Below are positions 7,455 through 43,060 of a DNA stretch of 43,150 nt, in pieces. The DNA is from Catajapyx aquilonaris (taxonomy: Eukaryota), in assembly GCA_000934665.2 (NCBI GenBank), contig JYFJ02003345.1:1-43150 (forward strand). The letters are read 5' to 3'. Made by a program: the position numbers and the translations under genes. The stretch's first letter is position 1. Every line of letters starts with the position of its first letter. Below the pieces are notes generated by a model, which worked only from the letters and a program-made list of their open reading frames with translations, was not told the origin of the DNA and did no database searches.

Positions 7455-39966
<32,512 letters not shown>

Positions 39967-40526
39967 CCCAACCAGGAGCCTCCTTCGCGACGCCTCCACA
40001 GCAGAGGCGGAAGCGGAGGGGCAGGAGGTGCGGGGGCAGGGGGCGAGGAGGCGCGCTGGTATCGCAAAAGACTCCTCAGTTTCAAGTCGCTCTCCATCCC
40101 ATAATGATAAAAACAATTTTGCCAACTCCTTAAGAGGAGGAAAACAAGCTGAAAGTGACCGGTGGCCTTCTTTGTCCCAAATGCCTGCTTTTTTTCTTCA
40201 GGAAGAAAAAAAAAGCATAAGATGAACTTCAGAGTGGGCCTTATCACAGTGGATTTTTATGTGCATTTCTGGCAAGGACTGGATTTGATCTGACTAGTGT
40301 TGCCTTGTCGATTTTTTTGTATACTGTCGGTTGTACGTATAATTTCATCACCGCTTAACATAACATTCATAGGCTTAGATTGCTATTTACTTACAGGTGA
40401 TGCTCTTCACCACTTTCTCAATCATAGTGGAAAATTTTTAAAAAAGAAGTGCATATATGCAATGGTATGAAAGGAAGTCATACAATAAGTGAGCTTTGTG
40501 ATATCCAAGTATAAGTCCAGTGCATT

Positions 40527-40532
40527 AATAAA
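40527..40532 (+). terminator. Candidate polyadenylation signal of PKC delta
   Basis: First AATAAA seen downstream of the last coding exon. Confidence 0.5.
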
Positions 40533-41022
40533 GTTGATACCTGATTAGATGTAAGGAGGGGGTTGGGCTTAGCAAAGCCAAACTAATAGCGGTGCTATTA
40601 TTAGCAGGGGGAAAACAAAAGAATAGGGTTAATGTTTGTTTCACAAATTGCACTGAGATTTATTTGTATGATACACTGATCAACATTGCAAAAAATGTAA
40701 AACTCATTACTTCATTCCAGTCTGTTGCATCTCATTCAGTCATCATTTCACATTATCACAGCATTGCTTTCATTCTTAGCCATTCACCATAAGAAATGTA
40801 AATGATCTGTCAAGTGCCCCTACAAAAATAAGCCGAACATTTAAAAAAATTACTTGCCTCAGACTCGTCATCAGAGTGGATAGTAACTGAGTCATCTATT
40901 CTGAATAAACTATTAAATGCACTTAATCCATTAAAATACCCAAAGCAACCCATTACAATTACAGGAAGCTTCATAAAAACTTGTTCCCCGAAGAGTGCAG
41001 TACATATGGAAAAAATACTGGC

Positions 41023-42294
41023 TTAAGCCTTGGCTTGAACATTGAACTTCTTCTTATTATGACTCTCAGACGTGTAATGCTGATGTGCACTTGCTTCCCC
41101 TGTAAATGTCGCATTGCATAGAGCACATCTCTCCAGTGAGTTATATTCGTCACCACCCAAAAGCTTCTTTACTTTTGCAAGGTGAGATTTCCCTTTCTTG
41201 TGATCATAAGCAGACTGAATAGAGGGACATTCTATCTCGCAGAAAAGACACTTCAAGTAGTTCTTTTCTCGTTTTTTTGTGTTCAGAACCGTCGAAATGA
41301 GGCCTCACTTCGATAGGCTTCAGGGATTTGTTGCAGCATTGGCATTTAGTTTCTTGGGTTCCACTGGTTGGCATGTTGGAAGCTCCAAGGGACGCAGGAG
41401 CAGCAGGAGCAGAAGGCAAATCCTAGGGAAAATGAAAATAATTACTGTAGATTAAATGCTACACCGCATAAAATGCAGTTTGAGTACCTGCAATCCTGAC
41501 GCCAGCGAAGTTGCTCTGCCTGAAATGACAACATAATTATCATTATCATTACTATCGCTTCACGTAAGATTTCATGTCCTATTTAAGAAAACTGGTTCAC
41601 CGTCTATTTCAGCCATCAGTGAAGAAACATTCTTACGATGAGTAGCACTTGCCAGATGTGCAGCATAATCAGCATTGAATGACCTAATTGTCATTGAGCA
41701 AACAAGACATTTGAAATTTAATCCTTGCGTTTGCAGGCTAATGGACAAAACAACTCATGTCAAGAGTTTAATCAGACTTGTAGGTAGCATAATTATAATG
41801 ACATACCTGGGCAAACTTGGAATGAGGTTATCACCACCTATATCCCTCCTCTCTACAGCTCTCCCTCCACCATTCAAAATCTGGTCAAAGATTGGGTCCT
41901 GAAACACCCCGCTTGTGGTTGAACCATTTCCAATGGCCGTAGAAGGCACATCCAAACTCTGAGAGATTTCCCATGGAACCCTGGCGTTATCATCAAACGC
42001 CAGCAGGTCAATCTCGGCTCCAGTGGTGTTATTCTCAGCTCCCGTGGTGTTACTCTCAGCTTCAGTGGTGTTATTCTTAGACCGGGATCGGCCTCCTTCA
42101 AGTTGAAATATCCGTTTCTCCAATTCTGTAACCCTTGATTTTAATATTTCATTATCGCATTTCAGCCTCAGAATGTCTTTTTCCATGGAACTAATATGTT
42201 CTTGGCTGGCGATTTCAGAAGAGGTCATCTTGTCTTGCAGGCTTGTGATCATTTTTAAAATGTCCACTTGAGACACGATACTAGCAGCCATCAT
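41023..42294 (-). CDS. Coiled-coil plus four U1/matrin-type (CxxC...HxxxxxH) zinc-finger protein; apparent 1-nt frameshift
   Basis: Exons 42294-41807, 41737-41601, 41519-41488 and 41422-41023 with GT-AG introns of 69, 81 and 65 nt in consistent phase. Fingers: CLVC..HLASATH, CQCC..HFDGSEH, CLFC..HKKGKSH, CALC..HYTSESH. The frame changes at an A7 run (41272-41278). The ATG exon has an acceptor at 42381-42382. Confidence 0.8.
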
Positions 42295-43060
42295 GAAAGC
42301 TAATTATCTCAAGTGCGAGTAGAATGTGGGGTAACTTTGGAAGTGCCACGAAGAATCACAAAATGATTATGTTCCTTCCCCTGCAACATGAAACACAAAA
42401 CATTAAACATACAGCATGGCCACAACACATGTTAAGTCTTTATATCACACTGTAATATCCCAAGCAGTACAGATTCTTTTCCTACGTGCATGATGTCCCA
42501 TAAAGTTTTCACCTACTGCGACATGTAGGGTAGGCCAGAGGAAACACATAGCATCTTGGTTGGTTAAAACTGTGATATCCAGGACTTTCTAATTTCATTT
42601 ATTCATGTTGAGCACTACAGTATTTGCCACTGATCTATGCTTTTCTCTAGCCTCATGATAGTACAGACATTCTATTTTCAGATTATACTTCAGATTTTGA
42701 AAAGGACCCTAGAGATGATGCCAAAGACTGGAATTGAGGCAATCTGCTAAGTTCTTTGAAATGTGCAAGGCGTTCTAAATCTTATTGAAACTATAATTAC
42801 TGTATTTGGGGACCTTGTAATGAGTTTGTATAAACACTCATCATTTTGTTTTAGCTGTGAATGATTTTTTTAGCAACATCAGGAAGACAGAAAATGACTT
42901 TTTCTTCAGAAATGAAGTTCATGTTAGTGGGCATTCAAAAGGTGAGATAACAATGACATAACAAGCACTTTAAATTAGAATTTCAATAATTTTCAATTTA
43001 ACAGCTACTAATGATTCGCCTATTACTTTTACATTCTCAAATCCACAGTTTTATGTATTA

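Follow-up and report, generated by a model that had tools for sequence, protein, structure and literature searches.

Functional stop-codon readthrough is abundant in insects and in D. pulex, and the parts of the study cited here describe it as gained and lost in existing genes, with structures in 9-10% of the readthrough candidates but in less than 1% of other transcripts (Jungreis et al. 2016, PMC5100048). A fly atlas now counts about 1,400 readthrough genes; its top tiers are characterized by UGA-C, high GC, an enrichment of Gly, Ala, Glu and Gln, and structure near the stop, and flies favour A at position +5 (Makarova et al. 2026 preprint, PMC13278127). These catalogues cover flies and mosquitoes, and for other pancrustaceans the part cited here gives a genome-wide estimate for D. 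pulex only (PMC5100048). Readthrough with a stem-loop located 3' of the stop is known from Drosophila kelch and headcase, alphavirus UGA-C sites and SEPN1, with reported spacers of 6-12 nt (mostly 6-9 nt, and 12 nt in SINV; Firth et al. 2011, PMC3159437). The sole PKC that a string search found in both the fly and the mosquito lists is aPKC: the D. melanogaster gene (FBtr0303429, tier 1 in the 2026 table) has a TGA-C stop followed by 131 codons, and the A. gambiae gene (AGAP011988-RF) has TGA-C followed by 53 codons (PMC5100048, PMC13278127). Pkcdelta was not found in the available parts of these lists by a string search, in which unnamed mosquito rows could hide an entry (PMC5100048, PMC13278127), and no report of PKC-delta readthrough was present among the literature matches listed.

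The stretch of DNA analysed here (the window) is one whole contig of 43,150 nucleotides from Catajapyx aquilonaris, and it holds an arthropod Pkcdelta (novel PKC) gene. Exons from 8905 to 39963 are colinear with Daphnia (P0016) and termite (P0008) PKC-delta in tblastn, and the exons encoding the C2-like, tandem C1, kinase and Pkinase_C regions match named PKC-delta proteins. Its terminal part shares 72-89% identity with named PKC-delta homologues, and the best matches of this tail in the protein search are Daphnia proteins, which points to a pancrustacean host outside the insects. A second copy of the 147 nt that begin at the stop was not found in the genome, in a search that gives a lower bound, and no further match at the Pkcdelta level was present among the 59 of 448 candidates that were scored. 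The features relevant to the 3' end of the gene are the following.

38807..38947, + strand: penultimate coding exon, with a phase-0 donor joined to tail B (tblastn to Daphnia P0016)
39026..39178, + strand: tail A, a second Pkinase_C-type terminal exon (Pfam PF00433, E 4.7e-12), ending TGA-T
39820..39963, + strand: coding part of tail B, the turn and hydrophobic motif region of the kinase C-tail (PF00433, E 2.3e-14)
39964..39967, + strand: first stop and +4 base, TGA-C, the candidate readthrough site (sequence; unchanged in the X1 contig)
39967..40101, + strand: second ORF, the candidate readthrough extension, 45 codons, 67% GC (sequence)
39978..40022, + strand: predicted 16-bp interrupted hairpin with a 7-nt loop, beginning 11 nt 3' of the stop (for a hand-cut 49 nt, z -4.94 and -30 kcal/mol)
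40006..40053, + strand: linker of Gly, Ala and Glu codons with a period of 3 nt (94/62/44% G at codon positions 1, 2 and 3), holding the 9-nt deletion of X6 record 3
40063..40086, + strand: RKRLLSFK, a predicted PKC-type phospho-acceptor with its Ser at 40078-80 (pattern match only)
40102..40110, + strand: second stop plus two more in-frame stops, TAA TGA TAA (sequence)
40260..40584, + strand: alignable 3' UTR block used as non-coding comparison, with AATAAA at 40527

The locus shares with pancrustacean readthrough genes a UGA-C stop, a GC-rich second ORF of Gly, Ala and Glu codons and a predicted structure less than 100 nt from the stop, and also a frame that is kept and a gain or loss in a single lineage (PMC5100048, PMC13278127). 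It differs from them in that its codon score is neutral, that distant relatives do not share its stop context and that the case is known from sequence alone; in addition, the +5 base is C, whereas flies favour A (PMC13278127). Like aPKC of fly and mosquito, Pkcdelta is a PKC-family gene with a TGA-C stop, but aPKC belongs to a different PKC subfamily, and the table parts cited give it as ancient and as lacking an RNAz structure. In this genome, the aPKC-like gene has TGA-A followed by 8 codons at the stop examined, which may not be the orthologous stop. As in kelch, headcase, the alphaviruses and SEPN1, a stem of more than 10 bp with a bulge on its 5' side is located shortly after the stop, and its spacer of 11-13 nt falls near the upper limit of the reported range (PMC3159437). 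Unlike those systems, no compensatory change is present here among the changes listed, and one shared change falls in the inner stem.

Contigs of four of the 23 listed runs were aligned to the locus; those of X7 and X13 leave the extension uncovered (X13 covers 57 coding bases only) and so carry no weight for or against it. The contigs of X1, X6 and X7 behave as transcript assemblies because they contain splice joints. The joint 38947 to 39820 (GT..AG) is present in the X1 contig and in X6 record 4, and the joints in X6 record 3 and X7 reach 39824 and 39826, with 4 and 6 letters between. In all four bridging contigs tail A is skipped and 38947 is joined to tail B. The X1 contig, which derives from another sample of the same organism, contains no other letter over 39820-40640; the stop, the hairpin sequence and the second frame therefore sit in the spliced transcript, without majority editing. 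The skipped tail A is a diverged exon, with FEGFSCD in the hydrophobic-motif region where FQGFSYT is otherwise present. Downstream of it the GC content is 0.42 and the MFE of the next 70 nt is -7.8, and its stop is followed by 48 open codons that are AT-rich and unstructured.

Tail B ends in ...NPNTTD followed by TGA, and in 44 of 46 homologues the C-terminus lies no more than 2 residues from this point. We also collected 18 metagenome loci, 16 of which were used (L018 and L019, with 33% and 57% identity, were dropped); these represent about 11 distinct downstream sequences, which by tail identity are termite-like, Daphnia-like and in one case like another insect. All 16 carry a stop at the position where tail B ends, and in 14 of them this stop is TGA. 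Together these results indicate that the TGA of tail B is the canonical stop. It is an ancestral stop, as in Jungreis-type readthrough, and not a recent nonsense change.

The sequence following the stop presents a different picture in these distant loci. None of the 16 has C at position +4, and none has a comparable hairpin (best MFE -14.5). In 15 of them the second frame is 0-16 codons long, and the single frame of 45 codons is unrelated and unstructured. At the protein level, the extension was covered by none of the 46 matches among 1,009 longer candidates and by none of the 9 matches among 33 candidates of near length; it gave no match at E<=0.001 in 1.84 billion representatives, and no Pfam family was detected in it. 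Because the distant loci lack them and no protein covers the extension, the hairpin, the TGA-C and the second frame appear to be lineage-limited. Four database proteins (P0006, P0007, P0052 and P0055) continue beyond the stop and have a W at this position or immediately behind it; their tails are unlike the extension, and we read them as gene-caller products in which TGA was translated as Trp and not as a sign of readthrough. The termite-like loci L002-L010 have in common the sequence TGA-AGT-GGA-CTT-(T/C)AT-TAA, with a small hairpin about 45-62 nt downstream. Within the genome studied here, the loci L020 (G000:C8371) and L023 (G000:C5533) encode near-identical PKN-like kinase tails, one ending WC-TAA-GTT-GTT-CCA-TGA and the other WC-GAA-GTT-GTA-CCA-ATG-TAA; judged by these ends, the two are duplicates or alleles, one with a stop codon where the other has a sense codon.

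The earlier note had described the stop as TGA-C, followed by 45 sense codons with a given peptide and by TAA TGA TAA, and sequence and translation bear this out in full. None of the 45 codons is ATG. Besides the junction peptide, GGSGGAGGAGAGGEEAR would be a peptide of the candidate readthrough form. The open frame by itself is no evidence: five of the six frames are open, in-frame openness was recovered in 32% of mononucleotide and 65% of dinucleotide shuffles, and of nine other genuine AGC-kinase stops of the genome two have 46 and 48 open codons behind them, all of which indicates that such a frame is expected by chance. Among the controls, the Akt-like kinase locus L025 (G000:C1130) has TGA-G followed by 46 open codons that are AT-rich and unstructured. 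Nor does the GC content drop at the triple stop, as had been claimed. The best change point is at 40060, with a posterior of 0.90 in 40040-70 and of 0.02 in 40096-40112, and GC passes from 73% to 51% to 41% around it. Triple stop plus GC drop was accordingly rejected as evidence for readthrough and is given little weight. The GC content of the 135 nt is in itself exceptional: nowhere else in the window does a stretch reach 64% GC, and a GC content of at least 0.66 was found in 0.14% of 197,320 sampled 135-nt windows of the genome.

Of the stem-loop proposed in the earlier note, the pairs 39982-88/40013-19 and 39991-96/40004-09 were predicted with a probability of at least 0.97, but the base of the stem and the spacer differ. 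The predicted base pairs 39978-80 with 40020-22 and leaves U39981 bulged; the spacer is therefore 11 nt rather than 13 nt. Hence, by prediction only, a stable stem is present at about 6-12 nt after the stop, starting at 11 nt and with its core at 15 nt. Compared with chance at its own composition, the hairpin has a z-score of -3.4 to -3.6 for the 60-70 nt from the stop (-3.56 for 70 nt), which becomes weaker for other lengths (-1.8 to -2.6 for 50, 80 and 100 nt; -1.43 for the full 147 nt). Only three of 5,664 sampled 70-nt windows, from 200 kb of the genome, are as stable as the hairpin window, and so are none of the 10 GC-matched windows (GC >=0.68). After the stop, GC and MFE are 0.67 and -37.7 here, versus 0.37-0.45 and -0.7 to -16.6 at eight other AGC-kinase stops, a control set from which matches ending at intron stops were left out.

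Further evidence comes from two contigs (records 3 and 4) of a single run of a related organism, X6 (organism B), which share a common history and are not independent. Their depths are 80 and 7.6, and they are about 87% and 95% like this genome. The presence of two different Pkcdelta sequences in the run versus one copy in the genome may reflect two species, alleles or paralogues. Over 39824-40100, record 3 differs at 35 of 268 aligned nt and has a single gap, of 9 nt, at 40024. This deletion is in frame, falls just outside the hairpin and corresponds to one unit of a local 9-nt repeat, so that its length may reflect slippage. Beyond 40100, 148 unalignable letters replace 40101-40259, and the 325 nt from 40260 to 40584 can again be aligned, with 43 differences and eight gaps of 1 nt each. 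The alignment of record 4 covers 39820-40239 and contains 20 differences and 6 gap events, which add up to 13 letters. Three of these events are listed at 40112, 40115 and 40132, and the other three were placed by the depth table, which puts 5 + 8 = 13 gap letters in 40103-40228; none is therefore left for the extension.

Over the two X6 contigs there are thus no frameshifting gaps within the extension and up to 14 events after it, and the check for frameshifting indels in close relatives that the earlier note had named comes out in favour of the extension as far as these two contigs reach. The frame is kept between the stops and lost after them, as in Jungreis-type readthrough, in two contigs of one run. 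The naive chance that 11-14 frameshifting gaps would all miss the extension is 0.002-0.006, and for the 79 nt outside the hairpin only it is 0.02-0.04; both values set an upper bound on the evidence. AT-rich UTR is more gap-prone than GC-rich DNA. The break in the record 3 alignment at 40100 tracks the end of the ORF and not the GC step at 40060. A break within 3 nt of the second stop would by simple arithmetic occur in about 2% of cases if positions were uniform over 39967-40260. Structure does not explain the loss of alignment at this point, since the 3' half has no significant fold (a second hairpin in 40034-40101 has z -1.2).

Among the substitutions listed for the X6 contigs, two fall within the extension, T39981G, which is synonymous, and T39995C, which changes Leu to Pro; at 39964-67 none of the changes listed is common to both X6 contigs. 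T39981G sits on the bulge and does not alter the energy. T39995C changes the fold from -37.7 to -33.2, a cost of 4.5 kcal/mol, and because no shared partner change is listed at 40005, a pair of the inner stem is broken in at least one X6 contig.

Within the single genome the coding signal is mixed. A codon model based on 5,646 codons, which was trained on hand-picked ORFs (one training exon carried its terminal stop) and has low power at 45 codons, scored frames 0, +1 and +2 at -0.6, -0.8 and -4.3. The frame 0 score is mid-range for non-coding stretches free of stops, and 86-93% of coding stretches score higher. This is only weakly negative, because readthrough regions are reported, in the part of the study cited, to be intermediate between coding and non-coding (Jungreis et al., PMC5100048). 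The G periodicity of the linker is as expected for Gly/Ala codons with a free third base, and a triplet repeat would hit this register one third of the time. This periodicity is coding-like, and so is the GC3 of 0.69 in the last 13 codons.

The resemblance of RKRLLSFK to a PKC substrate, which the earlier note had pointed out, was also tested against controls. In this pattern match the Ser is surrounded by a basic residue at -3, a hydrophobic one at +1 and a basic one at +2. A pattern of the CKAR type was present in one of 2,714 stop-free 45-codon stretches of the genome and in 0.1% of residue shuffles, a looser pattern was present in 2.5%, and S/T-x-R/K, the bare PKC-substrate pattern, was present in 52-71% of controls. 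The motif is thus rarer than chance, but the pattern was picked after the peptide was known and other motif classes would also have been of interest, so that its rarity gives modest support only. The designed PKC substrate of CKAR has basic residues at -4/-3, hydrophobic ones at -2/+1 and Lys at +2, all of which KRLLSFK has as well, and its Gly/Ser linker likewise finds a counterpart in the linker of the extension (PMC2172956, in the part cited). Similarly, the kinase's own pseudosubstrate RRRGAIK has basic residues at -4/-3, a hydrophobic one at +1 and Lys at +2, but KRLLSFK lacks its Arg at -2, and its Ser would make it a substrate and not a pseudosubstrate. A further difference from both CKAR and the pseudosubstrate is that the putative tether would be C-terminal and conditional.

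The post-stop element is, on its sequence features, real and unusual, and it makes a reasonable though unproven readthrough candidate. We consider it fairly probable that the UGA-C of Pkcdelta tail B undergoes functional readthrough by a minority of ribosomes, in a lineage-limited manner. Readthrough had been proposed in the earlier note, and it is the leading explanation on account of the gap pattern and the hairpin and GC outliers, not on account of frame length, triple stop or GC drop. In the mechanism that we propose, the UGA-C would terminate inefficiently and a near-cognate tRNA would decode the stop, while the stem, 11 nt 3' of it and near the mRNA entry channel, would slow termination as at other readthrough sites with a 3' structure. 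The product would be the kinase plus one residue (X) and 45 further residues, ending at the TAA at 40102, and the trait would be limited to this lineage. The extension is modelled as a disordered Gly/Ala tether that would end in a basic-hydrophobic peptide, with about 37 mostly disordered residues between the old C-terminus and the Ser. A tether of this length should be long enough to reach the active site, and the kinase's own active site would then phosphorylate or bind the tail peptide in cis. As the kinase core and the phosphorylation motifs of the C-tail are untouched, any effect of the extension would be on regulation, location or stability and not on catalysis.

A further step, which we regard as doubtful, is that readthrough would provide PKC-delta with a second, C-terminal self-regulatory module, in which the tethered RKRLLSFK would compete with substrates until it is autophosphorylated. 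If so, the leak at the stop would set the fraction of the enzyme carrying a phospho-releasable brake, and this brake would be independent of the pseudosubstrate controlled by diacylglycerol. We know of few readthrough tails for which a specific function has been proposed. For a kinase that adds its own substrate motif, a direct test would take no more than one peptide and one mutant. As a lineage-limited case with a compact hairpin, the locus is also a ready substrate for reporters and illustrates how an old gene can gain or lose readthrough.

It is possible, although on balance unlikely, that the 135 nt are instead not translated and form a GC-rich, structured first part of the 3' UTR (either an RNA element or a G-rich repeat that has decayed), with frame and motif as by-products and a leak that is basal and functionless; the locus would then be ordinary. 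The composition, from which an open frame is expected, the neutral codon score and the failure to see the element in the 16 distant loci are in line with this. So is the block 40260-40584, which is about equally similar in the relative (43 of 325 nt versus 35 of 268 aligned nt differ); alignable UTR therefore exists here without coding. This explanation does not account for the lack of frameshifting gaps in the two contigs, including the 79 nt outside the hairpin, for an alignment that ends within 2 nt of the second stop, for a G periodicity in the codon register or for the rare substrate-like motif.

A minor splice form in which an alternative acceptor leads past the stop is quite improbable. 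It would join 38947 to 39976 in frame 0, replacing the C-tail motifs, or to 40002 in the +2 frame, giving an Arg/Gly-rich tail that ends at the TAA at 40131; the low probability applies to the two forms jointly. The boundary 39975|39976 is in phase, with a CTAAC 22 nt upstream that we take to be a branch-point motif, but it scores -3.6, under all 14 real acceptors of the gene (-2.4 to 9.4). The boundary 40001|40002 scores 1.1, within that range, and the first gaps of record 4 (2+1 nt, then 1 nt in a TAA) also leave the +2 frame intact; this frame, however, has the worst codon score, and the record 3 alignment stops at 40100 and not at 40133. Moreover, all four bridging contigs use the normal acceptor region of tail B and none listed joins the extension, although contigs drop rare forms. 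Recoding of the UGA, by A-to-I editing to UGG or by insertion of selenocysteine, is very improbable. A UGA followed by a hairpin does resemble the SEPN1 arrangement (PMC3159437, in the part cited), but the UGA lies outside the predicted stem, an Rfam scan of 38800-41500 to E<=5 gave five weak matches, all to families other than SECIS, and the X1 contig keeps TGA, where rare editing would not show. Finally, a recent nonsense change or assembly error in a protein that normally runs to 40101 would fit the open frame after the stop, but is effectively refuted by the shared C-terminus of 44 of 46 homologues, the stop at this position in all 16 loci (TGA in 14) and the TGA in an independent sample of the organism.

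Several other features of the window were noted. Downstream, the X1 contig extends 815 letters beyond 40640, to about 41455 if colinear. On the minus strand, 41026-41304, 41207-41422, 41575-41754 and 41758-42303 belong to a convergent gene with zinc fingers (zf-C2H2_jaz, E 1.8e-6; zf-met over the cut-off) and a coiled-coil exon. As the X1 contig runs past 40640, either the 3' UTR of Pkcdelta may overlap the convergent exons in antisense or the contig merges two transcripts. Within the gene, 36954-37092 and 38093-38232 are two exons in tandem that each encode the catalytic loop and activation segment and align with one and the same part of P0016, and a tandem repeat of about 27 nt at 37270-37650, with GTTAAC twice in its unit, is located in the intron between these two alternative catalytic exons. 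Further upstream, the second half of C1B is directly preceded by a low-complexity open frame of 331 codons (34646-35641), and at 15731-15862 a short exon matches the N-terminus of the termite isoform P0008. By their sequence and position both are likely alternative first exons, and the form starting at 34646-35641 likely lacks intact C1 domains, like Daphnia P0017 and P0018, which have no C1 Pfam label.
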